A stretch of 40,650 bases of DNA from a bacterium. GTDB taxonomy: Bacteria > Patescibacteriota > Minisyncoccia > Phycocordibacterales > UBA9973. Location: the NCBI GenBank assembly GCA_037140115.1, contig JBAXFB010000001.1, positions 1-40,650 on the forward strand, read 5' to 3'. Of this stretch, positions 1,830-32,558 are shown in pieces. The notes under the pieces were generated by a model, which was not told where the DNA came from, ran no database searches, and saw nothing but the letters and a program-made list of their open reading frames with translations. The translations under genes and the position numbers were made by a program. Within the stretch, counting starts at the first letter, position 1. Every line of letters starts with the position of its first letter.

Positions 1830-1846
1830 TTCTATTTCATAAAAAC

Positions 1847-3604
1847 ATGAAAATATTCTATACATATTTAAAGAAATATTGGAAGCTTTGCGCGCTTACG
1901 CTTGCGTTGGCATCCATAAACCAAATTTTTTCATTGTTGGATCCTTACATATTTCGTCATGTTATAGATCAATACGCTACCAAACCAGAACTTTACACTC
2001 AGGCTGAATTTTTTAGTGGTGTGGGAGTACTTTTGCTTGCTATTGTCGGAGTAGCCTTTGTTTCTAGAACAGCCAAGAATTTTCAAGATTATTTTTTGAA
2101 TGGTATTACCCAAAGAGTTGGGGCTGATATATATAGTAATGGTATAGCACATGCTCTCTCTCTTCCATATAGTGTTTTTGAAGACGAAAGAAGTGGGGAG
2201 ACTTTGGGTAAATTGCAAAAGGTTCGCCAAGATACAGAAAAGCTTGTTGCCGCATTGGTCAATGTAATCTTTGTATCTTTTGTCGGTTTTATTTTTGTTG
2301 CTATATATGCACTCAGTATATATTGGGGGATTGCACTAGCTTTCTTTGGTACGATTCCAATTATTGCTGGCATGAGTATGCTTTTGTCAAAAAAGATAAA
2401 AAATATTCAGACCACTATAGTGGCCGAGACAGCAGCCCTTGCTGGGTCGACTACCGAGTCTCTTCGCAACATTGAGTTGGTCAAGAGTCTAGGTCTTTCA
2501 AGTCAGGAGATGGGTCGTCTTAATACTACAACTCAAAAAATATTAAAGCTTGAATTAAAAAAACTGAGATATCTTCGCAGTTTAAGTTTTGTGCAGGGTA
2601 CGGTCATAAACTTTGTGCGTACGGCAATTTTATTCTTTCTGTTATATCTTATTTTCAATGGGACCATTTCTTTTGGAGAATTCTTCTCTCTGTTTGTTTA
2701 TTCTTTCTTTGTGTTTGGACCTCTTCAAGAAGTGGGCAACGTTGTTGGTATCTACCGTGAGGCAGAAGCATCCTTGGCTAATTTTGAAAAATTGATGCAT
2801 CTGTCACCGGAGGCGAAAGCAGCCAATCCAGCACATATTGGCTTGGTAAATAAAATAGCTTTCGAAAATGTTTCTTTTAAGTATAATTCAGGCACTGATA
2901 ATGCGCTCGAAGCTATATCATATGAAGCAAAAAAGGGTAAAACTATAGCTTTCGTCGGTCCGTCTGGTTCTGGGAAGACTTCACTTGTAAAACTTTTGGT
3001 TGGGCTTTATACGCCAACTAAAGGTAAAGTATTGTACAACGATGTGTCTTTTGAAGATATAAATAAAGAAGAGGTTCGTTCACAGATAGGATTTGTGACT
3101 CAAGATACACAACTTTTTGCTGGTACAATTCGTGAGAATTTGCTTTTCGTGAGGCCTTTAGCTACAGATGTAGAATGTCTAGATGCTTTAAATAAAGCAC
3201 AATGCCAAAACCTGCTTGCTAGGGGTGGCAAAGGCTTAGATACTGTAATAGGAGAAGGTGGAGTGAAAGTTTCAGGTGGTGAAAAGCAAAGACTTTCTAT
3301 TGCACGTGCGTTATTACGTATACCAAAAATTCTTATATTCGATGAAGCTACATCATCCTTAGATAGTTTAACGGAAGAGGAAATTTCTAAAACTATACGT
3401 GATATTTCAACATCTGATTCCCATATAACCATTTTAATTGCGCATCGTTTATCTACTGTAATGCATGCAGACACCATTTATGTTTTGGAAAAGGGTAAAA
3501 TTGTAGAACATGGAACTCATACAGATTTAATTTCTGCAAAAGGATTATATTATGCTATGTGGCGTCAACAGATAGGAGAGAGGGTAGAAATTAATCGAAA
3601 ATAA
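1847..3604 (+). CDS. ABC transporter, fused permease/ATP-binding (MsbA/exporter type)
   Basis: N-terminal six-TM-like domain. Walker A GPSGSGKTS, ABC signature VSGGEKQRLSIARAL, Walker B ILIFDEATSSLD. Confidence 0.92.
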   Translation: MKIFYTYLKKYWKLCALTLALASINQIFSLLDPYIFRHVIDQYATKPELYTQAEFFSGVGVLLLAIVGVAFVSRTAKNFQDYFLNGITQRVGADIYSNGIAHALSLPYSVFEDERSGETLGKLQKVRQDTEKLVAALVNVIFVSFVGFIFVAIYALSIYWGIALAFFGTIPIIAGMSMLLSKKIKNIQTTIVAETAALAGSTTESLRNIELVKSLGLSSQEMGRLNTTTQKILKLELKKLRYLRSLSFVQGTVINFVRTAILFFLLYLIFNGTISFGEFFSLFVYSFFVFGPLQEVGNVVGIYREAEASLANFEKLMHLSPEAKAANPAHIGLVNKIAFENVSFKYNSGTDNALEAISYEAKKGKTIAFVGPSGSGKTSLVKLLVGLYTPTKGKVLYNDVSFEDINKEEVRSQIGFVTQDTQLFAGTIRENLLFVRPLATDVECLDALNKAQCQNLLARGGKGLDTVIGEGGVKVSGGEKQRLSIARALLRIPKILIFDEATSSLDSLTEEEISKTIRDISTSDSHITILIAHRLSTVMHADTIYVLEKGKIVEHGTHTDLISAKGLYYAMWRQQIGERVEINRK

Positions 3605-3605
3605 T

Positions 3606-4376
3606 ATGAGAGAGCCTGTAATTTGTTTCGGTCAACAACCAAATGGATTTTTCCCAAAGGGTTTTTTCTATGCCAAAGTGGAAACAGCGCGCAAATTGCA
3701 AAAAAAGATTGGCGGAAAAATTGTTTTTTTCTATCATGACTCGGATGCAGACTATCGCGAGACCATTACCATATTTGTGGATCCGAAGACGGGAGAAGAA
3801 GTCCGTCTCAACTTCAACACAAAAAATAAAATACAAAAAAAGTATTCTCCATTATATATCAAAAAGATTTTATCTGAATGGCAAGATGAGATTGTACGCA
3901 AATTGCCTAGATTTATGGATGAAAAATTAATTAATATTTTTAAACAGGCACAAGGTTTGACGGTGGCAGATTTTTGTTTAGATATGTATAAAAGACTAGG
4001 TCTGTTGGATGGTATAGAGGTGATGCGTTCTTCTGACCCTGGTTTTCGTATGAAAGCAGATGATCTTAAGGAATTTTTTGCCGATGTGCCTTACCAAAAT
4101 GAAATAGTTCGTGCGGAAATGTTTAATGGAAAACTCAGACTTCATGAGGGTGGTGGTAAGTATTTTGATATAGAAAGTCCTGCGGTCATAGAGAAATACC
4201 AAAAGAATCCAGCTCGAGATGAACGTTTTGCTTGGATGCAGTCAGTAATTCATGCTACACATTATGTTGCCGGTGTGGGTGAGAATGGGTATCTTAAAAA
4301 AGACAATTTTCCGGATGTGATTTTTGTGGAAAGAGATGCAATCGAAAAGTCTGAGTATGCTTATATTCCAGATTAA
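3606..4376 (+). CDS. Hypothetical protein, possible short BshC-like (bacillithiol cysteine-adding enzyme N-domain-like)
   Basis: 256-aa ORF directly upstream of the bshB/bshA homologs. Motifs CFGQQPNGFFPKGFFYAK and FFYHDSDADYRE recall BshC motifs (GGQQAGLLTGPLYTIHK, FWVAGEDHD) as I remember them. It is much shorter than canonical BshC (~540 aa). Confidence 0.4.
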   Translation: MREPVICFGQQPNGFFPKGFFYAKVETARKLQKKIGGKIVFFYHDSDADYRETITIFVDPKTGEEVRLNFNTKNKIQKKYSPLYIKKILSEWQDEIVRKLPRFMDEKLINIFKQAQGLTVADFCLDMYKRLGLLDGIEVMRSSDPGFRMKADDLKEFFADVPYQNEIVRAEMFNGKLRLHEGGGKYFDIESPAVIEKYQKNPARDERFAWMQSVIHATHYVAGVGENGYLKKDNFPDVIFVERDAIEKSEYAYIPD

Positions 4377-4404
4377 TAATTAATAGTGTATTATATTAGC
4401 ATCT

Positions 4405-5097
4405 ATGAAAAAAATACTTGTATTTGGCGCTCATCCGGACGATATAGAATTTGGCTGTGGCGGGCTTTTAATAAAAGAGAAACAAGAAGGAGCCGAGATT
4501 AAATTAGTGGTGTGTTCTTTTGGTGAGGCTGGTACTAATGGCACCAAAGAAATTCGCAGAAAAGAAGCAGAGGCTGCAGCTCTTTTCCTCGGCGCAGAGA
4601 TAGAGTTTTTAGATTTGGGAGGGGACTGCCACATACAATACAACCCAGAGACTTCCTTTACTCTTGCTTCGGTAATAAGAAATTTTCAACCAAATATTGT
4701 GCTCTCGACATCTCTTGCCGAAAATCAGCATCCAGACCATCTCGCTTTGGCGCAGTCGGTTAGGGCTGCGTGCAGGCTTGCTCGATACGGAGGCCTCAAG
4801 GAATTGAGTGCAAATAAATTTCATGTTATAGATGCGCTTTATTATTATCCGTCTAGCGCTGAATTTTATAAGAATCCAGATATTATAGTGGACGTCTCTC
4901 ATGTATATCCGAAGTGGAAAGAATTAATGTCTTTTCATGAAAGCCAAATGCAAACAAGAAGTTATATCAATATGGTTGAGAGTAGGGCTAAATATCTTGG
5001 GGTGTCGGTTGGTGTCGACTATGCTATTGGTCTTTGGGTCAACGATTCCGTAAGAGTTGACAGTCTTTTTAGTCTTGGTTCCTCTCGAAAATATTAA
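4405..5097 (+). CDS. bshB: PIG-L/LmbE family N-acetylglucosaminyl deacetylase (BshB-like)
   Basis: N-terminal ILVFGAHPDDIEFGCGG motif typical of the LmbE/PIG-L family. Adjacent to the BshA homolog. Confidence 0.75.
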   Translation: MKKILVFGAHPDDIEFGCGGLLIKEKQEGAEIKLVVCSFGEAGTNGTKEIRRKEAEAAALFLGAEIEFLDLGGDCHIQYNPETSFTLASVIRNFQPNIVLSTSLAENQHPDHLALAQSVRAACRLARYGGLKELSANKFHVIDALYYYPSSAEFYKNPDIIVDVSHVYPKWKELMSFHESQMQTRSYINMVESRAKYLGVSVGVDYAIGLWVNDSVRVDSLFSLGSSRKY

Positions 5098-6135
5098 ATG
5101 TCAGAAGATAAAATACTAAAAATAGGCATTGTGTGTTATCCGTCAGTCGGAGGTTCTGGTGTCGTGGCTACGAGTCTGGGTATTGAACTCGCGAAGCTTG
5201 GGCATCAGGTGCACTTCATTAGTTATGATCCACCTTTCAAGTTGGATACTGAGCAGAAAAATGTATTTTTCCATAAAGTTGAAATGACTGGATATTCTTT
5301 GTTTAAGTATCCGGACTATACACTACCTCTTGCAGTAAAGATTGTAGATGTTTCAAAAGAGTACAAACTTGATCTGGTGCACGTGCATTATGCCGTGCCT
5401 CATGCTACTGCTGCACTTCTAGCAAAAGAAATCGCTAAGGAAGAAAAACTGCATTTTCCAAATGTGATAACTACTCTTCATGGTACAGACATTACACTTC
5501 TTGCTAGAGATAAGACGATAATGCCAGTGATCAAATATTCCATAGAAAGTTCTTGCGGAGTGACTGCGGTCTCAGAAAGTCTAAAGAAAGATACTGAAAA
5601 ATTACTCAAAACTACAAGAGATATTCAGGTGATTCACAATTTCTACGACCCAAAAGAAATCACTAAAAGCTCCAGTGCTATACGTAAAATTCTAGGGGTG
5701 GCAGAAAGTGATTTTCTTGTGATCCACCTTTCAAATTTACGTCCCGTAAAGAGGATTCCAGATTTGTTGGAAATAATGCACACAGTGAAAAGTAATCCGA
5801 GAATAAAGTTGTTGATTTTATCTGGGGGTGATTTTTCTCCATACGAAAAAATTGTAAAAGAGTATGGCATAGAAGATAGAATTATAGTAAAAAGTGGTGT
5901 TACAGATATTGAAAATTATATCAATGCGTCTGATATCGGGCTGTATACTTCAGAAGAAGAAAGTTTTGGGATGGGAATATTGGAGACTATGTCTTACGGC
6001 AAGCCAGTATTGGCTACGAATGTGGGTGGGGTGGCAGAATTTATGAGAGATGGCAAGACTGGATTTTTGTTTCCTGTGGGGGCAGTCGAGAAATTCGCCG
6101 AGAAATTATTCAACTTTCTGTGGATCTTGACCTAG
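5098..6135 (+). CDS. bshA: GT4 glycosyltransferase, N-acetyl-alpha-D-glucosaminyl L-malate synthase BshA-like (reading frame breaks near 6103)
   Basis: KIGIVCYPSVGGSGVVATSLGIELAKLGHQVHFIS, TTLHGTDIT and EESFGMGILETMSYGKPVLATNVGG closely follow B. subtilis BshA as I recall it. The ORF ends prematurely, and the C-terminus continues in another frame. Confidence 0.85.
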   Translation: MSEDKILKIGIVCYPSVGGSGVVATSLGIELAKLGHQVHFISYDPPFKLDTEQKNVFFHKVEMTGYSLFKYPDYTLPLAVKIVDVSKEYKLDLVHVHYAVPHATAALLAKEIAKEEKLHFPNVITTLHGTDITLLARDKTIMPVIKYSIESSCGVTAVSESLKKDTEKLLKTTRDIQVIHNFYDPKEITKSSSAIRKILGVAESDFLVIHLSNLRPVKRIPDLLEIMHTVKSNPRIKLLILSGGDFSPYEKIVKEYGIEDRIIVKSGVTDIENYINASDIGLYTSEEESFGMGILETMSYGKPVLATNVGGVAEFMRDGKTGFLFPVGAVEKFAEKLFNFLWILT

Positions 6136-6248
6136 CAAACAAATTAGGGAAAGAAGCAGAGAGTACAGTCATTCATAATTTTTCAAGCAATCAAATGGTG
6201 GAGGAATATATTTCTTACTATAGAAAAGTTTTAAGTATAAAGAAATGA
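6104..6248 (+). pseudogene. bshA: Out-of-frame C-terminal continuation of bshA (…IIQLSVDLDLANKLGKEAESTVIHNFSSNQMVEEYISYYRKVLSIKK*)
   Basis: Reading from about 6104 in the frame shifted by one base gives a typical GT4/BshA C-terminal helix ending at TGA 6246-6248. One extra A in the run at 6103-6105 would restore a ~383-aa protein. Confidence 0.7.
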
Positions 6249-6332
6249 TAGGTACCTTAACTTGCTAAGTCGAAGATGCGTCAAATCGTGGAGCATATTT
6301 TAAAAGAGGCTTCTGTATGATACAATAAAGAT

Positions 6333-6737
6333 ATGAAAAACAGAGTTGTGCATTTTGAAATACAAGTAGACAATCCAGAACGCGCAATGAAATTCTATGG
6401 CGACGTTTTTGGCTGGGAATGGAAAGATTGGAGTTCGGTAACTGGCTCTCCATATTGGGGTATTATGACAGCGCCCATGGATAGCAAAGAGCCTGGGATA
6501 AACGGCGGACTTTTGAAACGTCCATGTCCAGCGCCAAAAGTGGGACAAGGCACCAATGCTTTCGTTTGCACTATCCAAGTGGATAACTTTGATGAAGTGG
6601 CTAAGAAAATCACGGATGCAGGTGGAGTGGTTGCAATGCCAAAAATGGCTTTGGCCGGCATGGCCTGGCAGGGATATTTTCTCGACACCGAAGGCAATAC
6701 CTTTGGTCTTCACCAGTTAGATAAAAACGCAAAATAA
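6333..6737 (+). CDS. VOC (glyoxalase/bleomycin-resistance/dioxygenase) family protein
   Basis: VVHFEIQVDNPERAMKFYGDVFGWEW N-terminus and the C-terminal GYFLDTEGNTFGLHQ are typical of VOC-fold proteins. Confidence 0.8.
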   Translation: MKNRVVHFEIQVDNPERAMKFYGDVFGWEWKDWSSVTGSPYWGIMTAPMDSKEPGINGGLLKRPCPAPKVGQGTNAFVCTIQVDNFDEVAKKITDAGGVVAMPKMALAGMAWQGYFLDTEGNTFGLHQLDKNAK

Positions 6738-7028
6738 ATGTTCAAAGAATACATTGCATATTTGAAAGATAATCCACAAGGTCTATGGTTCAAACGCAAA
6801 CTCTACGGCTGGGGTTGGACGCCAGCGCGCTGGCAGGGGTGGGTAGTTCTTTTGGCCTACGTGGTAGGTCTCGTAAAAATTTTTATAATTGTTGATGCAG
6901 GCTCACATTCGGGGAGTGACACCATGATCAGCATGGCCTTGCCATTTCTTCTTTTCACGGCGCTTTTGTTTTTTGTTTGTTACAAAAAAGGCGAATCACC
7001 TCGCTGGCAGTGGGGTTGGAAGAAGTAG
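6738..7028 (+). CDS. Small membrane protein, unknown function
   Basis: 96-aa ORF abutting the previous stop (TAAATG). Two hydrophobic helices. Confidence 0.55.
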   Translation: MFKEYIAYLKDNPQGLWFKRKLYGWGWTPARWQGWVVLLAYVVGLVKIFIIVDAGSHSGSDTMISMALPFLLFTALLFFVCYKKGESPRWQWGWKK

Positions 7029-7062
7029 TATAATAGTATTTAATTAAATTGTTTTTATCTGT

Positions 7063-7117
7063 AGCGGGTGGTCGCACTCACATATGCACTTATGTTGGAG
7101 TTTCGCCATCACCCGCT
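7063..7117 (+). ncRNA. Candidate small structured RNA element (GC-rich stem AGCGGGTG...CACCCGCT with inner hairpin)
   Basis: An 8-bp outer stem encloses CATA-tgcact-TATG. Preceded by TATAAT at 7029-7034 and followed by a strong terminator at 7138-7178. No family recognised. Confidence 0.25.
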
Positions 7118-7137
7118 TCAAATGAAAATAATAAAAT

Positions 7138-7178
7138 AAAAAATCCAAAACAAAATTTTGTTTTGGATTTTTTATTTT
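7138..7178 (+). terminator. Rho-independent terminator (perfect palindrome ATCCAAAACAAAA/TTTTGTTTTGGAT plus T-run)
   Basis: 13-bp self-complementary arms at 7143-7168, flanked by an A-run and a T-run. Confidence 0.7.
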
Positions 7179-7352
7179 TAAGAGTTATCCCCAGTTTTAC
7201 AAAAAATACATTGTGTTGTGTTCTTATATACGCGATAATTAAGATGTTTCCGAAGCAATAAATATTTTGGTCGTTTTATTGCACACCCTCGGCCGTAAGC
7301 CTATGGGCGAGGCTCACATTAGTAAGTTAATCTCGTGTAAGAGCAAAATCAT

Positions 7353-7433
7353 ATGGCAGCAAAAAAGAAAAAGAGAGTAGCAAAGAAGACAGCGAAAAAG
7401 GCAAAGAAGAAGACTACAAAGAAACGAAAATAG
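7353..7433 (+). CDS. 26-aa lysine-rich small protein MAAKKKKRVAKKTAKKAKKKTTKKRK
   Basis: ATG 7353, TAG 7431-7433. Its own terminator lies 20 nt downstream. Below the size cutoff of the ORF track. Confidence 0.45.
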   Translation: MAAKKKKRVAKKTAKKAKKKTTKKRK

Positions 7434-7450
7434 TCTTTTCTGTTTTTTGA

Positions 7451-7486
7451 AAAACTCCCCAAAATACGGGGAGTTTTTTATTTTTT
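7451..7486 (+). terminator. Rho-independent terminator
   Basis: CTCCCC-aaaatac-GGGGAG followed by TTTTTTATTTTTT. Confidence 0.75.
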
Positions 7487-7502
7487 GTGCTAGTATATAT
7501 CA

Positions 7503-10022
7503 ATGTCTATATTTGGAACAATATTTGGTGATGAGAGCTCAAAATTCCTTGGAAGCATTAAGGGAACCGTTGAAAAAATCAATGCTCTAGAAGCTGATGT
7601 TTCAAAGTTCACAGATGCGGACTTTCCAAAGAAAACCCTTGAATTTAAAGATAGATTAACAAAAGGTGAGTCTTTGGACGATATTTTGCCAGAGGCTTTT
7701 GCGTTGGTGCGTGAAGCTTCCAAAAGAAATTTAAACGAAAGGCATTACGATGTCCAGCTCATCGGAGGTATTGCTCTACATAAAGGTAAAATCGCAGAGA
7801 TGCGTACAGGTGAAGGTAAGACTTTAGTGGCAGTGCTTGCTGCTTATTTAAATGCTTTGAGTAGAGAGGGTGTGCATATCATTACAGTGAATGATTATTT
7901 GTCTCGTATTGGTGCTGTGCTGATGGGGCAAGTTTATAATTTTTTAGGCTTGTCAGTGGGAGTTATAAATTCAAATAATGTTTCGTATCTTTATGACTCT
8001 ACCCATAAAGAAGAAGACAAAGAGCGTGATGCAGTCGGTGAATTTAAAGTTGTGTATGATTTTTTAAAACCAACTAGCCGTAAAGAGGCCTATGCTGCAG
8101 ACATTACTTATGGTACAAATCATGAATATGGTTTTGATTATTTGCGCGACAATTTAGCAACGACAGTAAGTGGTTTGGTCCAACGTGCACCAAACTATGC
8201 GATAGTCGACGAAGTAGACTCTATTCTGATAGATGAAGCCAGAACTCCACTTATTATTTCTTCTGCTGCAGGCGACTCTGAAGATTTTTATACAAAGTTT
8301 TATCAAATCGCCAAGCAGATGAAGCGCGACACTGACTATGAAGTTGATGAGAAGTTACGAGCGATTACTTTAACCGATGCAGGCATTAACAAAGCTGAAC
8401 AGCTTTTGGGGGTTGAAAATATTTACACAGAAAAGGGTATCAAGTATGTTCACCATCTAGAGACTGCAGTAAAAGCTCAAGCAATATTTCTGAAAGACAA
8501 AGACTACGTTGTAAAAGATGGTGAAGTTGTTATAGTGGACCCTTCTACTGGTCGTTTACAACCAGGACGACGTTGGTCAGAGGGAATTCATCAGGCGATC
8601 GAAGCAAAGGAAGGAGTCAAAATAGAAAAAGAAACTCGTTCTAGTGGTTCTATAACTTTTCAGAACTATTTTAGATTTTATAAAAAGTTGGGTGGCATGA
8701 CGGGTACGGCACAGACTTCTGCAGAAGAGTTTTTGAAAGTTTACGGCCTGGATGTGATAGTCATTCCAACGCATCGACCGATAGTACGTATGGACCACAA
8801 TGATTTAATCTTTCAAACCGAAAAAGGGAAGTTTCAAGCGATTGCTAAAAAAATAAAAGAATTAAACGCTAAAGAACAGCCGGTCTTGATAGGTACTATA
8901 TCAATTGAGAAAAATGAACTCTTGTCTGTTTATTTAAAGCAAGAAGGTGTACAGCATGTTATTTTGAACGCTAAAAATCACGAGAAGGAAGGAGAGATCA
9001 TAGCGCAAGCAGGTAAAAGAGGGGCAGTTACTATCGCTACAAACATGGCAGGCCGTGGAATCGACATCAAGCTTGGGGGGAATCCACACACACAAGAGGA
9101 TTATGAATTCGTGAAAAACATCGGCGGACTTTTTGTGTTAGGCACAGAAAGGCATGAAGCTCGTCGCATCGACAACCAGCTTCGTGGACGTTCGGGTAGA
9201 CAAGGAGATCCAGGTGATACTCAGTTTTATGTTTCGCTTGAAGATGACCTCATGCGTGTGTTCGGTTCAGATAAAATAAAAACCATGATGGGACGTTTTG
9301 GCATACCGGAAGATCAGCCGATTGAAAACCGTTTCATTGGTAGAACTCTTGAAGGTGCGCAAGCCAAGATCGAAGGATTTCATTTTGATGCTCGTAAAAA
9401 TACTCTTGAGTACGACGACGTTATGAATCATCAGCGTAAAATTATTTACGAACGAAGACAGAAGATGCTAAAGGCTGATAAGGCTGGCATTGAAGCATTG
9501 ATCGAGGACCTTAAGGCGGAACATGAAGGTTTTGACAAAATAGTTGAGGAAAAAAAGAAGAAATTAGGCGAGGCAGAATTTTTCGAAGTTGTGCGTCGTA
9601 TTGCTTTGTACACCACTGACACTCTATGGATGGAACATTTAGAGGTGATGGATTATCTTCGCTCTTCTGTAAACCTGCGTGCTTATGGTCAACGTGAGCC
9701 GATTGTGGAATACAAAAAAGATGGTCTGATGATGTTTAAGCAAATGGAGGAAAGCTTTAAAGAACAAGTTTTTGCTTTGGTTGGCACAATTTCTGAGCCG
9801 GCTAGAACAGAAGAAAATAATATTTCTCAAACTTTAGTCACAAGTCATACTGAACCAAGTGAACTTGGAGGTCCAAAAGACTTGAATGCTGGAGGTGAAG
9901 ACATTGGAAGAAATGACCCATGTCCTTGTGGAGCAATCAACCCAGAAACTGGCGAAGTCTACAAATGGAAAAAGTGCGGAATGATCAACGCTCCACAGCA
10001 TAGGAAGGCGCTTGTAAATTAA
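7503..10022 (+). CDS. secA: Preprotein translocase ATPase SecA
   Basis: 839 aa. MRTGEGKTL Walker A, DEVDSILIDEARTPLIIS, TNMAGRGIDIKLGG, RIDNQLRGRSGRQGDPG. C-terminal Cys-rich tail CPCG...KKCG. Confidence 0.97.
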   Translation: MSIFGTIFGDESSKFLGSIKGTVEKINALEADVSKFTDADFPKKTLEFKDRLTKGESLDDILPEAFALVREASKRNLNERHYDVQLIGGIALHKGKIAEMRTGEGKTLVAVLAAYLNALSREGVHIITVNDYLSRIGAVLMGQVYNFLGLSVGVINSNNVSYLYDSTHKEEDKERDAVGEFKVVYDFLKPTSRKEAYAADITYGTNHEYGFDYLRDNLATTVSGLVQRAPNYAIVDEVDSILIDEARTPLIISSAAGDSEDFYTKFYQIAKQMKRDTDYEVDEKLRAITLTDAGINKAEQLLGVENIYTEKGIKYVHHLETAVKAQAIFLKDKDYVVKDGEVVIVDPSTGRLQPGRRWSEGIHQAIEAKEGVKIEKETRSSGSITFQNYFRFYKKLGGMTGTAQTSAEEFLKVYGLDVIVIPTHRPIVRMDHNDLIFQTEKGKFQAIAKKIKELNAKEQPVLIGTISIEKNELLSVYLKQEGVQHVILNAKNHEKEGEIIAQAGKRGAVTIATNMAGRGIDIKLGGNPHTQEDYEFVKNIGGLFVLGTERHEARRIDNQLRGRSGRQGDPGDTQFYVSLEDDLMRVFGSDKIKTMMGRFGIPEDQPIENRFIGRTLEGAQAKIEGFHFDARKNTLEYDDVMNHQRKIIYERRQKMLKADKAGIEALIEDLKAEHEGFDKIVEEKKKKLGEAEFFEVVRRIALYTTDTLWMEHLEVMDYLRSSVNLRAYGQREPIVEYKKDGLMMFKQMEESFKEQVFALVGTISEPARTEENNISQTLVTSHTEPSELGGPKDLNAGGEDIGRNDPCPCGAINPETGEVYKWKKCGMINAPQHRKALVN

Positions 10023-19878: not shown

Positions 19879-20397
19879 ATGAGAAGAGTGCCACTTGCAA
19901 CTGGGGAAATTTACCACATCTTTAATAGAGGAGTCGACAAGAGAAAAATTTTTTCTGATCAAAAAGACCTGGATAGATTTTTTGAAAGTATTTTAGAGTT
20001 CAATAACATCGAGCCAATTGGAAGTTTGTTTGAAAAGAGTTTCCAGAAAGACAAAATTAAAAAGCCTCTCGTGGAATTTGTAGCATATAATATTTTGCCG
20101 AACCATTTTCATTTCGTTTTGAAACAAGTTTCTGAAAACGGCATCAGTGAATTCATGAAGCGCCTCTTGGGAGGTTATACGTGGTATTTCAATCATAGGC
20201 AAAAGAGATCTGGCTCCTTATTTCAAGGAACTTTTAAAAGCAAGCATATAGATTCCAACGAATATCTTTTACATGTGAGCGTCTACGTAAATTTGAACGA
20301 CAAAATCCCACTTGGCGGTTTAACCGCCAAGTTGAACAAATCGAGCTGGAATGAGTATGTAAATCCGGATTTAGTTAATAATTATGAACGAATATGA
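19879..20397 (+). CDS. IS200/IS605-type Y1 (HUH) transposase-like protein, REP-associated tyrosine transposase (RAYT/COG1943-like), interrupted by an in-frame TGA
   Basis: YHIFNRGVDKRKIF, HUH motif LPNHFHFVL, GSLFQGTFKSKHIDSNEYLLHVSVYVNLN with catalytic-Tyr context. Homolog-like sequence continues in the same frame after TGA 20395-20397 up to TAG 20515-20517. Confidence 0.8.
   Translation: MRRVPLATGEIYHIFNRGVDKRKIFSDQKDLDRFFESILEFNNIEPIGSLFEKSFQKDKIKKPLVEFVAYNILPNHFHFVLKQVSENGISEFMKRLLGGYTWYFNHRQKRSGSLFQGTFKSKHIDSNEYLLHVSVYVNLNDKIPLGGLTAKLNKSSWNEYVNPDLVNNYERI
20307..20333. repeat. REP-like palindrome copy 2, inside the transposase CDS (encodes PLGGLTAK)
   Basis: ccCACTTGGCGGTTTAACCGCCAAGTt, 24 of 25 nt identical to copy 1. 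Confidence 0.85.
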
Positions 20398-24125: not shown

Positions 24126-24641
24126 ATGTTCACAGATCCATTAAAAAATATAAAATCTTTAGGACTTCGGGAGACGGATATTGTGGCAGATTTGGGAGCC
24201 GGAACTGGCTTCTATTCTGTGGCAGCTGGACATATTGTGTCTAAAGGTAAAGTCTATGCAGTTGAGATAAATAAGGATTATTTAGCTACAATAAAACAAA
24301 AAGTCAGGGACGCGCATGTCAGTAATGTGGAAATAATTTGGGGCGATATAGAGAAAAAAGGTGGCACATCACTGCGAGATGGCATTATTGATGTTGCTAT
24401 TGCTTCAAACGTTCTTTTTCAAGTTCAAGATAAAGATAAATTTATTCAAGAGATATTTCGCATATTAAAAAAAGGTGGCAAAGTGCTGCTGATAGATTGG
24501 ACTGAGACTTCGCTAATGGCAGGGCAAAGCATCGTCTCAAAGAAAAATGCTTTGGCCTTATTTGAGAAGCATGGTTTTGTTTTGGATGTAGAAGTTAATG
24601 CAGGTTTGCATCATTATGGTATGATATTAATTAAGAAATGA
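24126..24641 (+). CDS. Class I SAM-dependent methyltransferase
   Basis: Motif I VADLGAGTGFYS and post-I/II motifs. The track ORF start (23937) overlaps gyrA and the GC-rich repeat, so ATG 24126 is preferred. Confidence 0.8.
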   Translation: MFTDPLKNIKSLGLRETDIVADLGAGTGFYSVAAGHIVSKGKVYAVEINKDYLATIKQKVRDAHVSNVEIIWGDIEKKGGTSLRDGIIDVAIASNVLFQVQDKDKFIQEIFRILKKGGKVLLIDWTETSLMAGQSIVSKKNALALFEKHGFVLDVEVNAGLHHYGMILIKK

Positions 24642-25936
24642 AAAAATTTCAAATTATAGTCATAGTCATTTTTATAGTTTTGGCCATTTTTGGAGTTTTG
24701 GTATTTTCTGGTACCATCCCAATAGGTAAGAATAGTAGTAGCACTCCTGGTGCCTTGGGTAACGTAGTTTTGTGGGGTTTTGTAAAATCTTCGGTTCTTT
24801 CTACTCCCATTGATGCATTTAATGCTGCGAATACTTCTTTTGTATTAAAGTATGTAGAAAAGTCTCCAGATACTTTTGATCACGACTTGCTTGAGGCTTT
24901 AGCTGATGGCAATGGTCCGGACCTTATCCTTGTGCCTGAAAATCTTGCATTTCATTATTCTGCTAGGATTTTCCCGATACCTTATGAAAGCTACCCACTT
25001 GCATCATATCAGAGCAATTTTGCTAGTGCCGGGAACGTCTTTGCAACTTCAAAAGGTATTTTAGCTTTTCCACTTTCTATAGATCCTTTGATGATGTATT
25101 TTAATCGAAGCACTCTTGATGCTAACGGTATTGTTTATCCTCCGGCATCTTGGGATGATCTAGTAAGCATTACACCGACTCTGACCAAAAAAGATGATGC
25201 TAATAAAATAACTAAAAGCGCAGTTGGCCTTGGTCATTTTGTAAATGTTGATAACGCTAAAGCCATTTTGTCTACACTTTTGATGCAAGCGGGTAGTCCT
25301 CTTGTGTCAGAACAAAACGGAGGAGTTTTTAAATCAAAATTTGATACATCAAACCCAGACTTAAGTTCGTCAGATATTTTAAATTTCTACACAAGCTTTA
25401 CTGATCCAAACAAAGCTGTTTATACTTGGAATCGCTCTTTGCCTGGTAGTGGCAATTTTTTCTCTTCTGAGAATTCGGCATTTTATTTTGGTTTTGCAAG
25501 TGAGCTTTCGAGTTTGATCAACAGAAATCCGAACCAAAATTTTGGTGTGGCTGCTGTACCTCAGATCAAGAATGCAAGTTCAAAATCAACCTACTCTCAC
25601 GTGTTTGGTGTGGCACTCCTTTCTTCATCGCGTAATTCCAATACTGCTTTTACTGCAGCTAGTTTGCTTGCAAGTGGTGACTTTGCTGCCCAGTTCGCTA
25701 ACGCCACAGGCACCGTGCCTGCTCGTAGAGATTTATTAAATACCAAAAAAACAGATGCATTTTCAAATATTTTCTACACTTCAGCTTTATTTGCCAAAAG
25801 TTGGTTGGACCCGGCATCTTCTGGTACGGACAAAATATTTAGTGGCATGATCGAAGGGGCGATTTCAAATAGTGTAACCTCAGCATCTGCTTTAAGTGAC
25901 GCAAGCAGCAAGCTCGACTTTCTTTTATTACGATAA
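24638..25936 (+). CDS. Membrane-anchored extracellular solute-binding-protein-like protein
   Basis: N-terminal TM anchor followed by a ~400-aa domain resembling family-1 (sugar-type) ABC substrate-binding proteins. No cognate permease or ATPase is adjacent. Confidence 0.55.
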   Translation: MKKFQIIVIVIFIVLAIFGVLVFSGTIPIGKNSSSTPGALGNVVLWGFVKSSVLSTPIDAFNAANTSFVLKYVEKSPDTFDHDLLEALADGNGPDLILVPENLAFHYSARIFPIPYESYPLASYQSNFASAGNVFATSKGILAFPLSIDPLMMYFNRSTLDANGIVYPPASWDDLVSITPTLTKKDDANKITKSAVGLGHFVNVDNAKAILSTLLMQAGSPLVSEQNGGVFKSKFDTSNPDLSSSDILNFYTSFTDPNKAVYTWNRSLPGSGNFFSSENSAFYFGFASELSSLINRNPNQNFGVAAVPQIKNASSKSTYSHVFGVALLSSSRNSNTAFTAASLLASGDFAAQFANATGTVPARRDLLNTKKTDAFSNIFYTSALFAKSWLDPASSGTDKIFSGMIEGAISNSVTSASALSDASSKLDFLLLR

Positions 25937-25946
25937 TATTTTTTAT

Positions 25947-26387
25947 ATGAAACTCCCAAAAACAATCTTTGTATCCATTGCAATATTTTCCATTCTTGTT
26001 GTGCCAGCCTTATCCTTGGCGGAGACAACAGTAGATACAGATATTCCAGATGTGGTCGTGGGTGGCAGCTTGGTACCTTGTGGGCATCCAAATCCTAATC
26101 AGAATAATGAAATAACTAATCCATGCAGTTTTAAAGATGCTATAACTATGATAAATACCATTACCAACTTCATTCTTTACAAAATGGCTATTCCAATTTG
26201 TGCCATAATGTTTGCTTATTCTGGATTTTTGATGGTTAGCTCTGGTGGCAGTTCAGAGTCCTTAGGAAGAGCAAAAAAGATTTTTACGAGTACTGTTATG
26301 GGGCTTGCTTTTGTCGCAGGTGCATGGCTTATAGTGAAGACAGTTATCACCACCCTTGGTTATGATGCTACTTGGATTGGGTTTTAA
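25947..26387 (+). CDS. Small secreted two-TM protein, VirB2/TrbC-like pilin paralog 1
   Basis: Signal peptide (ALSLAE), Cys pair (PCGHP...NPCSF), then two hydrophobic helices separated by SSGGSSESLGRAKK. Confidence 0.55.
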   Translation: MKLPKTIFVSIAIFSILVVPALSLAETTVDTDIPDVVVGGSLVPCGHPNPNQNNEITNPCSFKDAITMINTITNFILYKMAIPICAIMFAYSGFLMVSSGGSSESLGRAKKIFTSTVMGLAFVAGAWLIVKTVITTLGYDATWIGF

Positions 26388-26391
26388 TTAT

Positions 26392-26790
26392 ATGTATAAT
26401 ACACTTATGAGTTTTACAAAGAGAAGTTGCTATGGTTTGTTTGTTATATTATCTCTTTTTATTGTGCCTGGAATAATTTATGCCCAAGGGGATGTTCCAG
26501 CTCCGTGTCTTCCTGCTGCTGGCAGGATTTGCAATCCGCTAGGAAATACCAACACAATCCCAGCTTTTATAAAAATTATTCTTGAAGGTGCACTCAAGGT
26601 GGGTATCCCTATCATCGCCCTTGCTGTAATTTATTGTGGCTTTCTCTTTGTTGCAGCACAGGGTAACCCTGAAAAATTAGGTAAGGCAAAAGATGCGTTG
26701 CTTTATACATTAATAGGGGCTGGAATCCTTTTGGGTTCCTTAGCCATTGCAGAACTCATTTCTGCGACCATAAAAAGTGTAACTTCTTAA
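26392..26790 (+). CDS. VirB2/TrbC-like pilin paralog 2
   Basis: Signal peptide (IIYAQG), Cys pair (PCLPAAGRIC), two TM helices separated by AAQGNPEKLGKAKD. The start could be 26392 or 26407. Confidence 0.55.
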   Translation: MYNTLMSFTKRSCYGLFVILSLFIVPGIIYAQGDVPAPCLPAAGRICNPLGNTNTIPAFIKIILEGALKVGIPIIALAVIYCGFLFVAAQGNPEKLGKAKDALLYTLIGAGILLGSLAIAELISATIKSVTS

Positions 26791-26794
26791 TAAT

Positions 26795-27214
26795 ATGAAA
26801 AAAATATTTAAATATCTTTATTTTTTATTACTAGTATTGTTTTATCCAAGCCTTTCACTGGCAACTAACTTAACGCCTGCAGGAGATACTTGTGAGCTTG
26901 GGACTACCGGGGTGACTTTTAGCTTACTCGTAAAATTTTTTATATGTAACATAAATACAGCCATAATACCTTTAATTTTCGTTCTTGCGTTCCTTATGTT
27001 CGTCTGGGGTGTAGTGAAATTCACCTTGAACAGTAGCGAAGAAATAAAAAAGGAAGAGGGGAGACAATTTATGCTTTGGGGTGTTGTAGGGTTAACAGTT
27101 ATGGTGTGCGTATGGGGGCTTGTTGGTATACTAGCCAACACCTTTCATGTTAACGTAAGGGTTATTCCACAGGTGCAGACTCCGGCTACAACAACACCTC
27201 CTACCACTCCTTAA
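26795..27214 (+). CDS. VirB2/TrbC-like pilin paralog 3
   Basis: Signal peptide (SLSLAT), two Cys, two TM helices with linker NSSEEIKKEEGRQ and motif MLWGVVGLTVMVCVWGLVGILANTF. Confidence 0.55.
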   Translation: MKKIFKYLYFLLLVLFYPSLSLATNLTPAGDTCELGTTGVTFSLLVKFFICNINTAIIPLIFVLAFLMFVWGVVKFTLNSSEEIKKEEGRQFMLWGVVGLTVMVCVWGLVGILANTFHVNVRVIPQVQTPATTTPPTTP

Positions 27215-27327
27215 GTTAATCCCCAGTTGCTTTTGCTTTTAAATATCCTTGTAGTATAATTATCAGTATTATTATTTAAGGTCGTTTTAATTATTAGAAA
27301 TTATTAATAACGTTTCTAGAAAATTAT

Positions 27328-27777
27328 ATGAAAAAGAAATTAGGTGTTTTATTTATGGTTTTTGGTTTGTTGATTAGTGTTGCAGCTCCTATGGCAGCAT
27401 TTGCTGTTACTACTCCTGCTGGTACTGGTACTGGTAATGGTTCTTGTTCTATTACAACTACCGATATAACTGGTGGTGCGTTGAATGGTGGTACAGACTG
27501 GGATTTAAGAGCGGTGATCTGTAGAATAGAAGGTATATTGAGTTCACTGGTTCCTCTTTTGATGATCTTTGGATTTCTTTACTTCATTTGGGGAGTTATC
27601 TCTTATGTTATCGCTGGTGATGAAGAAGCTAAGACAGCAGGTAGAGACAGAATCATCTACGGAGTTATTGGATTCACAGCTATCGTTACACTTTGGGGAT
27701 TGGTAGCAATCTTGGCAAACACATTCAACATAAACAAAGCAGTCACTGTGACTCTTCCAGTCATTACCAGTCATTAA
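27328..27777 (+). CDS. VirB2/TrbC-like pilin paralog 4
   Basis: Signal peptide (MAAFAV), two Cys, linker AGDEEAKTAGRDR, motif IIYGVIGFTAIVTLWGLVAILANTF (nearly the same tail as paralog 3). Confidence 0.55.
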   Translation: MKKKLGVLFMVFGLLISVAAPMAAFAVTTPAGTGTGNGSCSITTTDITGGALNGGTDWDLRAVICRIEGILSSLVPLLMIFGFLYFIWGVISYVIAGDEEAKTAGRDRIIYGVIGFTAIVTLWGLVAILANTFNINKAVTVTLPVITSH

Positions 27778-27816
27778 CAGTGTACAATGAAACTAAGATT
27801 CTTAAATATTGATTAA

Positions 27817-28140
27817 ATGGAATTTTTTTCTACAAAGGTAGCCTATGCAAGTATAGATACTTTTCTTGGAAAAGTTGAAACCCAGATCGTCAACCCTATC
27901 ATCGTCTTACTTTTTGCTCTAGCGTTAATGTACTTTCTTTATGGAGTTTTTGAATTCATAATGAACAGTGCTAACGACGAAAAGAAGACCACTGGTAAGG
28001 AACATATGCTTTGGGGGGTTATAGGTTTGACTATCATGCTTGGGGTTTGGTTTATTCTAGGAGTCGTATTGGATACATTCAATATTCCTAGAAACCAGAT
28101 TGATCCTGAGCATGGCAAGGTCAACTTACCTGTAAAGTAG
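27817..28140 (+). CDS. VirB2/TrbC-like pilin paralog 5 (no Cys pair)
   Basis: Two TM helices with linker NSANDEKKTTGKEH and motif MLWGVIGLTIMLGVWFILGVVLDTF. Confidence 0.5.
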   Translation: MEFFSTKVAYASIDTFLGKVETQIVNPIIVLLFALALMYFLYGVFEFIMNSANDEKKTTGKEHMLWGVIGLTIMLGVWFILGVVLDTFNIPRNQIDPEHGKVNLPVK

Positions 28141-28164
28141 CAAAAGTTATTGAAATAGAAAATA

Positions 28165-28194
28165 AAAGACCCTAGCTTTGGCTAGGGTCTTTTA
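28165..28194. terminator. Bidirectional terminator
   Basis: AAAAGACCCTAGC-tttg-GCTAGGGTCTTTT between convergent genes. Confidence 0.8.
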
Positions 28195-28197
28195 TTT

Positions 28198-28644
28198 TTA
28201 ACTATGCTTTAGGGGAGATGAATGATATTTGTCTTCTGCACCATAAGCCTTTCTGACTAGGACCACGATGGCTAAGATAAGTATCGCTAAGATCAACCAT
28301 TGGATTAAGCCTGAAGGCAAGAAGCTGTTTGAGCCAAAGATCGCTGCAGCTCCAAGGTTTGTACCAGCGTTATTATTGTAAGTAGGTTCTACTGGGACTG
28401 ATTTCGCATCAGTGTTGGAAATAATGTTTGGAATAAATGTTGCTGGTGCAGAAGGCGCAATGTCAGGTGTTGTGGCCATACTTATACCTCCACTTGATAT
28501 AGAAGTAGCAGGGCCAGCACAGTTAGCTGCTAATACACTGTTCAAAGGAGTGAAAAGTAAGCCAGAAGCCATAATTAATAACATTCCCAAGTTCAAAACT
28601 ATTGATTTGTTATTTGTATTACTCATATAAAGATAGTATAGCAT
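28198..28644 (-). CDS. Secreted low-complexity protein with C-terminal TM anchor
   Basis: N-terminal signal-like helix, Ala/Ser/Pro/Asn-rich middle region, C-terminal helix LIQWLILAILILAIVVLV followed by basic residues. Confidence 0.55.
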   Translation of the reverse strand: MLYYLYMSNTNNKSIVLNLGMLLIMASGLLFTPLNSVLAANCAGPATSISSGGISMATTPDIAPSAPATFIPNIISNTDAKSVPVEPTYNNNAGTNLGAAAIFGSNSFLPSGLIQWLILAILILAIVVLVRKAYGAEDKYHSSPLKHS

Positions 28645-28716: not shown

Positions 28717-28798
28717 TGGGCAAGGGGGGACTCGAACCCCCAAGTCTTGCGACATTAGTTCCTAAGACTAACGCGTATACCAATTCCGCCACTTGCCC
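28717..28798 (-). tRNA. tRNA-Leu (anticodon UAG), type II with long variable arm
   Basis: The reverse complement folds as GGGCAAG/CTTGCCC acceptor, anticodon loop CTTAGGA, variable arm TGTCGCAAGACTT, T-arm GGGGG-TTCGAGT-CCCCC. Confidence 0.93.
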
Positions 28799-30738: not shown

Positions 30739-32049
30739 ATGATAAAGTCGGTAAGCATAAAAAACTTCAGAAGTATAGAAAACCAGAAGGTTGAACTTAC
30801 GCCTATAGTTTTTATTTATGGTAATAATGCGGCTGGTAAGTCGTCTTTATTCTATTCTTTTAATATTCTTAGAAACATAGTATCTAACCCAAACCAGCCG
30901 ATAGATAGTTTTTTTAGTTTAGGTTTTGCAAACCTTGGTAGTTTTAAAAAGGTTGTAACCAAACATGATGAAACAAAGACAATCACAATTTCTATAGATG
31001 GTTTGGTGGGTAAGGTAAATTTTACATATGGAGTCAAAATCAATCCAAAAAGGAGTGAATTTTTCTTGCATCTAGATAAACCTTATTCTTTAGAATTTTC
31101 TTTGCCAGTTACTTTTCCTTATCCACTTAACTTGAATGTTGAAAATCCTGTTACTTTTGATGATGTAGAATATAAAATAAACTGGAATGGAGTAACTGCG
31201 CAAGTAAGTTCAACAATTGCGACTCCCACCGACAGTTCAAATAAAAAGATAAGAGAGATTACTTTTTTATTGAACAAAATTGCAGAACTTATTCGTTCCG
31301 TTGATTTGGTTTCTGTTAGAAGAGGTTTTTTTGAACCCCAATATGGAGCTGTCAACATTACTCAATTTCCCATAAAAGAAGAAGAAGTTGCTTCAGTTCT
31401 GGCTGTGGATGAAAATCTTGATCATCAAGTTAATTCTTACTTAGAACAAATGATAGGGCGTCAATTTAGAGCTAAACCCAAATTAGGTACTTCTCTTGCT
31501 GAATTAACTACTATTGACCCAGAAGCAAAAATAAATTCCGATGTAGTTAATGATGGTTTTGGAGTTAACCAATTGGTATTCGTTTTAGCAAAGATGTTAA
31601 ATAAAAGTATACATACTGTATGCCTAGAAGAACCAGAATCTAACTTACACCCAGGGGCAGTTAGAAAACTTCCACAATCATTTATTGAAATAGCAAAAAA
31701 AGAAAATAAGCAATTAATTATTACAACCCACAGCGAGGCCTTAATTATTGCAATGCTTTCTGCTGTGGCAAAAGGTGAGGTTGCAAAAGAAGATGTGAGT
31801 TTTTACTTAACGCTAAGACAATCTGATACTGGTATTACATCTTTTGAAAAACAAGAAGTTTCAGAAGAAGGAGAAATACCAGGTGGTCTTAAAAGTTTTA
31901 TGGCTGGAGAACTTGAGGACATAAAAGGATTTTTTAAATCAAAACGAGGTAAGAAAAATGTAGAAAAAATGGTAGATGATAATACTCAAATTGCACATCA
32001 AGATTCAACAGAGAATCAAAATACAATTGAAAAACCATTGGAGCAATAA
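30739..32049 (+). CDS. ABC/AAA15-AAA21-type ATPase (OLD/Gabija GajA/PARIS AriA/Septu PtuA-like ATPase architecture)
   Basis: N-terminus SIKNFRSI plus Walker A GNNAAGKSS. C-terminal NDGFGVNQL (signature-like), Walker B VCLEEPESNLHP, H-loop ITTHS. TATACT at 30726-30731 lies 7 nt before the ATG. Confidence 0.8.
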   Translation: MIKSVSIKNFRSIENQKVELTPIVFIYGNNAAGKSSLFYSFNILRNIVSNPNQPIDSFFSLGFANLGSFKKVVTKHDETKTITISIDGLVGKVNFTYGVKINPKRSEFFLHLDKPYSLEFSLPVTFPYPLNLNVENPVTFDDVEYKINWNGVTAQVSSTIATPTDSSNKKIREITFLLNKIAELIRSVDLVSVRRGFFEPQYGAVNITQFPIKEEEVASVLAVDENLDHQVNSYLEQMIGRQFRAKPKLGTSLAELTTIDPEAKINSDVVNDGFGVNQLVFVLAKMLNKSIHTVCLEEPESNLHPGAVRKLPQSFIEIAKKENKQLIITTHSEALIIAMLSAVAKGEVAKEDVSFYLTLRQSDTGITSFEKQEVSEEGEIPGGLKSFMAGELEDIKGFFKSKRGKKNVEKMVDDNTQIAHQDSTENQNTIEKPLEQ

Positions 32050-32057
32050 ACATTTTT

Positions 32058-32558
32058 ATGTCAGTTCCTATTATTGTAGATGAATGGCTATTTGAAGACT
32101 TAGCTGGTAAAAATGGTGCAGATAAACAAAGCCAAGCTGTACAATTTTTGTATAAGCTTGAAGAAATTTGTGATCGAATTGTTGTTTTAGAGGGAAGTCC
32201 TTTTGAGAAAAAAATGCATGATCTTATGGGGAGCACAAATGATTCTTGTCGTTTTAGAGCAGCTAGAAGTGTTTTCATTGAACTTATAAGTAGCAACTCC
32301 TTGAAGAAGTGTTTTATTGCCAAGGAAGACATAAGTGCTTTGCCTGATGATGTTATAAAACTTATTCACAAAATAAATCCTTCCTCAACAAAAGACCACT
32401 ACTTATTCCAAGCCCACCAAAAACTAAAACATAAAGATTGTTTTATCTTAACTAGCGATGGTCGCTGGGAAAATGAAAAATTAAAGAAAAAAGGTTTTCG
32501 GATTGTAATGAAAGATTCTTTTATTACTCAATATTTGGAACGTGAGATTTCTAATTAG
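32058..32558 (+). CDS. Hypothetical 166-aa partner protein, PIN-like acidic-residue pattern (possible nuclease effector)
   Basis: Starts 9 nt after the ATPase stop. PIIVDEWLFEDL (N-terminal Asp), LEEICD, KDHYLFQAH, FILTSDGRW give a D...E...D...D spacing like PIN-fold domains. Assignment is by eye only. Confidence 0.4.
   Translation: MSVPIIVDEWLFEDLAGKNGADKQSQAVQFLYKLEEICDRIVVLEGSPFEKKMHDLMGSTNDSCRFRAARSVFIELISSNSLKKCFIAKEDISALPDDVIKLIHKINPSSTKDHYLFQAHQKLKHKDCFILTSDGRWENEKLKKKGFRIVMKDSFITQYLEREISN

Follow-up and report, generated by a model that had tools for sequence, protein, structure and literature searches.

Tandem arrays of VirB2-like pilin genes in Patescibacteria have already been published, so the array described here is of a known kind and by itself adds little. 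A published survey counted 441 arrays of 2–11 VirB2-like genes across 383 assemblies; identity averaged 25% and reached at most 54% (Quinonero-Coronel et al. 2025, PMC12102498). An array was defined there as 2–11 genes matching PF18895 or PF04956 (independent E-value <0.001, >50% of the model) that lie in tandem or one gene apart in a genome with VirB4 (PMC12102498). These arrays are most abundant in Microgenomatia and Saccharimonadia, and host-range versatility was proposed for them (PMC12102498), a proposal repeated in a 2025 review. As for S. epibionticum, several predicted pilins are encoded in its essential type IV secretion system (T4SS) locus (Wang et al. 2023, PMC10633639), among which SEML1_0014–0019 are six PF18895 genes, each scored essential (PMC10633639). 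The present array comprises five genes at positions 25947–28140 of a 40,650-bp window, which is the entire contig C1 (JBAXFB010000001.1) of a Candidatus Nomurabacteria metagenome-assembled genome, and in contrast to the lineages with the highest array abundance it belongs to Paceibacteria. The five genes are read here, with a probability of roughly 70%, as encoding non-redundant pilin-family subunits of the Patescibacteria T4SS. The assembly has a total length of 622,745 bp in 64 contigs and is 80% complete. The genes are the following:

25947..26387, plus strand: pilin paralog 1 (P0001, P1), 146 aa, with signal peptide, Cys45/Cys60 and two-helix hairpin; its ortholog clade is the first position
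26407..26790, plus strand: pilin paralog 2 (P0002, P2), 127 aa, with signal peptide, Cys34/Cys42 and hairpin
26795..27214, plus strand: pilin paralog 3 (P0003, P3), 139 aa, with signal peptide, Cys33/Cys51, hairpin and Pro/Thr-rich tail
27328..27777, plus strand: pilin paralog 4 (P0004, P4), 149 aa, with signal peptide, Cys40/Cys65 and hairpin
27817..28140, plus strand: pilin paralog 5 (P0005, P5), 107 aa, hairpin only, without signal peptide and without Cys

According to these open reading frame (ORF) coordinates, a preliminary description of the window was right to report five consecutive genes for proteins of 107–149 aa. All five match PF18895 (T4SS_pilin), which has a 71-position model and a gathering score of 26.6 bits. 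In the protein profile search P3, P4, and P5 exceed this score (34.9, 33.7, and 33.7 bits, respectively), and P1 and P2 have 26.5 bits each, 0.1 under it, with an E-value of 7e-6. E-values across the five proteins range from 7e-6 to 2e-8, and every alignment runs from model positions 3–12 to positions 69–71. In a six-frame search of the genome all five array genes score above the cut-off. PF18895 is the T4SS-pilin family enriched in the candidate phyla radiation that the preliminary description mentioned, and its assignment of the proteins to a VirB2/TrbC-like family is further supported by weak matches of P1 and P2 to TrbC/VirB2 (PF04956; 21.7 bits, E 2e-4, and 20.8 bits, E 5e-4, respectively), as well as by a match of P5 to NF045849. 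The latter profile describes the Mbov_0395 pilin-like protein of a Mycoplasma integrative and conjugative element (ICE); P5 scores 40.5 bits, barely above the cut-off of 40, along almost the full length of the 80-position model. The remaining NF045849 scores are all sub-threshold (27.5 bits for P4, 27.1 for P2, and 20.3 for P3), with no match for P1.

Signal peptides, AXA-type sites, helices, and cysteines were read by a simple hydropathy and pattern script, not by SignalP. P1–P4 share one order, namely an N-terminal hydrophobic segment, a mature region with a Cys pair, and two hydrophobic helices with a short charged loop. The AXA-type sites are SLA/ET after residue 25 in P1, IYA/QG after 26 in P2, SLA/TN after 23 in P3, and AFA/VT after 26 in P4. 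The expectation of a signal peptide with a cleavage site in every paralog therefore holds for four of the five and fails for P5, which is a hairpin only. The Cys pairs expected in the mature N-termini of paralogs 1–4 are all found at the residues listed above. The translations also contain the charged loops quoted previously (SEEIKKEEGRQ, GDEEAKTAGRDR, and NDEKKTTGKEH), the loop pattern E-x-K...G-R/K being conserved, and the nearly identical C-terminal tails of P3 (WGLVGILANTF) and P4 (WGLVAILANTF). An AlphaFold2 model of P4 built with 49 aligned sequences has helices at residues 2–26, 60–95, and 99–132 with a predicted local distance difference test (pLDDT) value of 73.5, i.e., a signal helix followed by a helix-loop-helix hairpin formed by the last two. 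As for P5, its orthologs likewise have neither signal peptide nor Cys; among those listed they are ~94–136 aa long, mostly 104–118 aa.

P2 has an alternative TTG start at 26356 that would give 144 aa; the ortholog alignment, however, begins at the ATG. P3 is a short form, with most of its orthologs having 190–276 aa and ~100–130 additional N-terminal residues. In some relatives (loci L023, L027, L094, L097, and others) the first pilin gene encodes 300–590 aa, with a large N-terminal extension ahead of the hairpin. Such extensions in the first and third pilin genes suggest that the pilin hairpins act as anchors for larger surface domains.

Because the N-termini are Sec-type rather than prepilin-type, an identity as type IV pilus pilins was rejected: the proteins have no class III motif (cut after G, then F/M-x-x-x-E), their N-termini carry AXA sites, and two further helices follow. 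None of the five proteins matches the Pfam families of type IV pilus pilins. In comparison with the TrbC/VirB2 pilins of diderms (PF04956; T-pilus, RP4, F-type), P1–P4 have the same topology of signal peptide, two helices, and charged loop, and P5 has the hairpin alone. In contrast to those pilins, the host is a monoderm, a Cys pair is present in the mature N-terminus, and there are five paralogs instead of one major pilin. Mbov_0395 and ICE_MMCAP2_0565 (NF045849) resemble P5 as small two-helix proteins without a signal peptide, and their host lineage is similarly wall-less or monoderm with an MPF-FATA-type T4SS; the genes described here, however, are chromosomal rather than located on an ICE, and form an array instead of a single gene.

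The distribution of the array was assessed in 80 gyrA-anchored loci from the genus, whose public genomes have GyrA 81–93% identical to that of the present genome and thereby place it among Candidatus Nomurabacteria, together with 15 loci from other families of the order and 30 class-level loci. In addition, PF18895 was surveyed in 41 genus relatives, of which 40 have matches, mostly 5–8 per genome. In ~73 of the 80 genus loci an array of 5–6 pilin genes lies 2–5 kb downstream of gyrA. Since this array recurs so widely and all five proteins match one Pfam family, the pattern is not due to chance. In 66 of 73 loci the closest match of the last array gene is P5, and the same count (66/73) holds for the penultimate gene and P4. 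In a quick-method maximum-likelihood tree of 104 hairpins, sequences group by position, with 20 label changes compared with a mean of 64 after shuffling. The tree has a deep split between P1 and P2 on one side and P3, P4, and P5 on the other (support 98, starred); the P5 group alone forms a starred clade, and nearly half of the internal branches lack resolution. Sequences from other families of the order are placed in the P1, P2, and P5 groups. Judging by these comparisons, the five paralogs are old, stable, position-specific ortholog groups in fixed order and not a fast-varying repertoire.

The preliminary description suggested that the multiplicity of the genes could reflect surface variation. 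In its fuller form this explanation holds that the copies are a surface-variation or host-range repertoire, with major pilins that can stand in for one another and take turns, a model put forward for the VirB2 paralogs of Bartonella and Anaplasma; the published survey also raises the idea (PMC12102498). The paralogs indeed have a pairwise local identity of just 19–46%, with the N-terminal outward-facing regions being the most divergent part, and the middle copies were duplicated separately in some other families of the order. Median ortholog identity of the pilins, however, is 42–58% (highest for P5, 58%), which is comparable with the neighboring methyltransferase (44–68%) and binding protein (42–64%), all of them being well below gyrA. 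The pilins diverge no faster than these neighbors and are thus not hypervariable. No sign of recent duplication was seen in the window, where gene conversion was not specifically tested, and the six S. epibionticum counterparts are individually essential, which argues against redundancy. As each paralog forms a conserved ortholog group tied to its position across the genus, with P1, P2, and P5 groups extending across families, the surface-variation idea is not supported and we regard it as very unlikely.

Genes for VirB4, VirB6, or VirD4 are absent from the window, as described previously. The sole AAA_10 match in it, a weak one at 1847–3604, belongs to an ABC exporter and was rejected as a T4SS ATPase. 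According to the six-frame search, the genome contains exactly six PF18895 places, five in the array and one on contig C6, within a T4SS cluster that as a whole spans positions 1780–8407:

Contig C6, 1780–2205: PrgI/VirB3-like gene (PF12666, 30 bits)
Contig C6, 2322–2960: 212-aa gene in the TrsD position
Contig C6, 2965–4806: VirB4-like ATPase, 613 aa (P-loop_TraG, 83 bits; AAA_10)
Contig C6, after the VirB4-like gene: 331-aa secreted protein
Contig C6, 5863–7065: protein of 400 aa that combines three Cys-containing repeats with a pilin hairpin in its C-terminal half, the sixth PF18895 place
Contig C6, after the 400-aa protein: 441-aa protein

The 441-aa gene is followed by jag, yidC, rnpA, dnaA, and dnaN, and the same origin-proximal T4SS arrangement has been described for Paceibacteria (PMC12102498). 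The virB4 product is 87–91% identical in four relatives and is thus under strong constraint. Large pilin-domain ORFs (~320–540 aa) located off the tandem array are likewise seen in relatives. Besides the C6 cluster, the genome has a C-terminal fragment of a type IV coupling protein (T4CP), cut at its 5' side, at the start of contig C12 (2–631; TraG-D_C, 28 bits, above the Pfam cut-off), and a second match of TraG-D_C type, below the Pfam cut-off, in a 219-aa ORF near the end of contig C27 (9220–9879). Three type IV pilus ATPases are also encoded. The genome-wide check for VirB4, VirB6, and VirD4 is hence positive for VirB4, PrgI, and a T4CP fragment and, in this incomplete genome, negative for VirB6, and filament assembly genes are present in the form of the T4SS set and the type IV pilus ATPases.

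The array as such agrees with the published definition (PMC12102498), having five consecutive PF18895 genes, the identity range given above, and a VirB4-like ATPase in the genome. It is similar to other Patescibacteria VirB2 arrays in its PF18895 matches, in its tandem arrangement of 5–6 genes of ~100–190 aa with low within-array identity, and in its genome, which has monoderm-type VirB4, PrgI, and TrsD close to dnaA and lacks a relaxase cluster. Since each paralog has its own ortholog group in fixed order and each of the six S. epibionticum counterparts is essential, the five proteins are most likely non-redundant parts of one structure rather than interchangeable variants.

Under the reading of the array as T4SS pilin-family subunits, Sec would export P1–P4, signal peptidase I would cleave them behind the AXA-type site, and the helical hairpin would keep them in the membrane. 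Their short charged loop would lie on one side of the membrane, and the N-terminal region with its Cys bridge would face outward together with the C-terminal tail. P5 would insert into the membrane without a signal peptide. Extraction of the subunits would fall to the VirB4/PrgI/TrsD-like machinery encoded on contig C6, which would build from them a pilus or a short cell-wall-spanning conduit that touches the host cell. The one structure that the paralogs most likely form would have a major subunit accompanied by minor or basal ones. That a pilus forms, and what the binding protein encoded upstream of the array does, are inferences.

Several observations weigh against this reading. The array is not adjacent to the VirB3- and VirB4-type genes, which is also a difference from the diderm pilins and from other Patescibacteria VirB2 arrays: it lies on C1 and PrgI and VirB4 on C6, and on long contigs of relatives the array and virB4 are 400–590 kb apart. 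Neither PF04610 (TrbL/VirB6) nor PF03135 (CagE_TrbE_VirB) has a match in this 80%-complete genome. The PF04956 matches of P1 and P2 are under the cut-off of 27.9 bits, and P3–P5 have no match at E ≤ 10. The absence of a signal peptide in P5 is unusual in a secreted pilin. A Foldseek search of the pilin model against PDB reports nothing at E ≤ 0.001, with the archaeal conjugation pilus 8dfu at rank 6 (E 1.4, not significant), and when the pilin alignment is used as a profile query on PDB sequences, only chance membrane-helix matches come up; the hairpin fold is too simple for a fold search to discriminate. Finally, none of the Paceibacteria pilins has, to our knowledge, been observed as a filament. 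As for the complex prediction with four copies of mature P0004, its score is under the mark and was obtained without controls, so it speaks neither for nor against binding.

The same proteins might be T4SS parts without an extended pilus, for instance a membrane or cell-wall-spanning stalk or a channel lining, as VirB2 is also found within the translocation channel. Monoderm MPF-FATA systems normally have no pili (PMC12102498; 2025 review), and five to six distinct subunits would suit a layered structure. P5, having no signal peptide and matching the Mycoplasma ICE pilin-like protein, also fits; we know of no pilus reported for that protein. Nothing speaks directly against a stalk or channel; the Cys-bridged exposed regions and Pro/Thr tails, however, resemble surface-exposed parts. 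This explanation overlaps with the reading of the genes as pilin-family subunits, and taken separately it appears unlikely.

The genes that precede the array, as the preliminary description noted, are those for a methyltransferase and an orphan solute-binding-like protein:

24126..24641, plus strand: class I S-adenosylmethionine-dependent methyltransferase, 171 aa from M64 of a long ORF (Pfam Methyltransf_31/11/25, E 2e-18)
24638..25936, plus strand: MalE-like (family 1) sugar-binding protein, 432 aa, with N-terminal helix anchor, directly upstream of pilin 1

The methyltransferase gene is the first of a conserved block after gyrA, and its stop overlaps the start of the binding-protein gene (ATGA), which couples the two translationally. 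Its orthologs (~171 aa) follow gyrA in 76/80 genus loci, 14/15 loci from other families, and 30/30 class loci. A role of this enzyme in modifying surface proteins is conceivable. The SBP_bac_1 fold of the 432-aa protein is reported consistently by profile search against PDB (SmoF 7nbz, E 1.6e-12; Thermococcus litoralis trehalose/maltose-binding protein 1eu8, E 1.5e-11), by its AlphaFold2 model (pLDDT 90.3), by Foldseek (4qsd, 4rjz, and 2zyo, E 2e-22 to 2e-20, TM-score up to 0.78), and by its homologs, which carry PF01547 or PF13416. A search for the MalFG-type permease PF00528 gave no match in this genome and none in the 41 genus genomes (33 of them of high quality), with a positive control in 14/14 reference genomes; the protein is hence an orphan, as had been stated. 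It shares the two-lobed fold and profile similarity with binding proteins of MalE-type ABC importers (SBP_bac_1; Atu4361 4qsd, TMBP 1eu8), and is unlike them in having an N-terminal helix anchor, pilin genes downstream, and no such permease found in the genus.

Nearly all genomes of the class (140/151) have the binding protein as a single-copy gene. It stands next to the pilin genes in 73/80 genus, 15/15 other-family, and 30/30 class loci, with the binding protein preceding the pilins and gaps of a few bases. The order of gyrA, binding protein, and pilins is kept in 15/15 other families, and with the methyltransferase included in 30/30 class-level loci. In the one relative that lacks pilin matches, a contig end truncates the binding-protein gene. 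Some genomes of the class in which no binding protein was detected still have pilin arrays. No fusion of binding protein and pilin was found in ~130 loci or among the best 120 homologs; a 557-aa homolog considered as a fusion turned out to be a binding protein with an insertion and no pilin domain. The link between the binding protein and the pilins is therefore one of synteny, given the arrays without a detected binding protein and the lack of a fusion. A literature search for the link found nothing: the block of gyrA, methyltransferase, binding protein, and pilins is not mentioned in PMC10633639 or PMC12102498, nor is the binding protein or gyrA in the 2025 review. The location inside this class-wide block, apart from virB4, distinguishes the present array from other Patescibacteria VirB2 arrays.

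The constant gene order, the lack of a permease match in the 41 genus genomes, and the distance from virB4 could also be explained if the pilin-like hairpins and the sugar-binding protein form a surface or membrane machine of their own that is independent of VirB4, e.g., a glycan-recognizing or uptake complex whose proteins with two transmembrane helices replace the absent permease or form a channel. PF18895 genes, however, lie inside the essential T4SS cluster of S. epibionticum, where there is no binding protein, and the present genome has its sixth pilin-domain gene beside virB4. The arrays found without a binding protein and the absence of fusions in the loci and homologs examined also argue against such a machine, and no ABC ATPase is linked to the block. 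Overall, independence from VirB4 seems unlikely.

The orphan sugar-binding protein is presumably co-transcribed with the pilins and is probably their functional partner. More specifically, and as a minority view, the MalE-like protein and the five pilin-like proteins may tentatively be regarded as one conserved Paceibacteria surface organelle in which the former recognizes a host-surface or host-derived sugar. The binding protein would then do the targeting or sensing for the T4SS pilus, or else stand at the entrance of an uptake route that takes the place of the ABC permease.

With regard to expression, two features stand out within and after the array:

27215..27327, plus strand: internal intergenic region with TTGCTT, 16 nt, and TATAAT ending near 27260, followed downstream at 27268–27284 by the motif ATTATTATTTAAGGTCG
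28158..28199, strand not assigned: bidirectional intrinsic terminator hairpin with a 19-bp stem (−28.1 kcal/mol, z −8.6) and T-runs on both sides

Array genes are spaced 5–40 nt apart, except for the 113-nt gap ahead of pilin 4. The wide gap is conserved: across loci, a median of 118 nt precedes the penultimate pilin gene, compared with 10–18 nt for the others. GGTCG occurs within A/T-rich sequence in 54 of the 63 orthologous regions, with ~0.05 expected per region, and the conserved form of the motif is ATTATTA..AAGGTCG beside a perfect −10 box. A pattern of a −10-like box plus GGTCG has 16 matches in the genome, and in our reading this is the only one upstream of a gene in an AT-rich promoter context. 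Based on these data, pilins 4 and 5 appear to be under their own promoter, and the conserved intergenic motif could be a leader or operator. No Rfam family matched in the internal intergenic region. In several relatives (loci L031, L048, L051, L073, and L075) the leader of the pilin-4 ortholog has one or two short GC-rich hairpins, such as CCGCC-loop-GGCGG and CAGCC-loop-GGCTG, which are absent from the window. The terminator hairpin closes both the array and a convergent 148-aa gene, and 0 of 200 shuffled sequences fold as well. Both the terminator and the promoter-like site were identified by sequence reading, folding, and comparison; a consensus scan for promoters and terminators reports no more sites than in shuffled sequences and misses the two.

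The convergent 148-aa protein (28198–28644, minus strand) has an N-terminal hydrophobic segment, an Ala/Ser/Pro-rich middle part, and a C-terminal membrane helix, and matches no Pfam family. In 54 of 80 relatives its final ~50 residues are conserved, within a protein that is mostly longer (170–300 aa) and encoded 1.5–3 kb further from the array. Just beyond this gene there is a tRNA gene (28717–28798, minus strand). Elsewhere in the window, an AAA_15/AAA_21 ATPase (436 aa) is followed by a 166-aa gene without a Pfam match (30739–32558), where the GC content is lower (0.32–0.34); the two may be a defence-type pair and were not found in the loci of relatives. A 172-aa ORF at 19879–20397 shows a weak match to an IS200-like Y1 transposase.

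In comparison with the published arrays, the present analysis adds the age and order of the paralogs, the class-wide block, the lack of a found permease, the distance from virB4, and the internal promoter-like region with GGTCG before pilin 4. In the single species tested, epibiotic growth requires the Patescibacteria T4SS. Ancient, ordered, and individually conserved paralogs favor a multi-subunit structure over the variation model, in agreement with the essentiality reported for S. epibionticum. That the array is fixed across the class behind an orphan sugar-binding protein, and not beside virB4, is a less-known detail and a useful lead. Being soluble, foldable (pLDDT 90), and easy to assay, the binding protein offers a practical route to a ligand connected with the T4SS machine. 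If the binding protein and the pilins do form one surface organelle, this would be the first handle on what the essential Patescibacteria T4SS recognizes.

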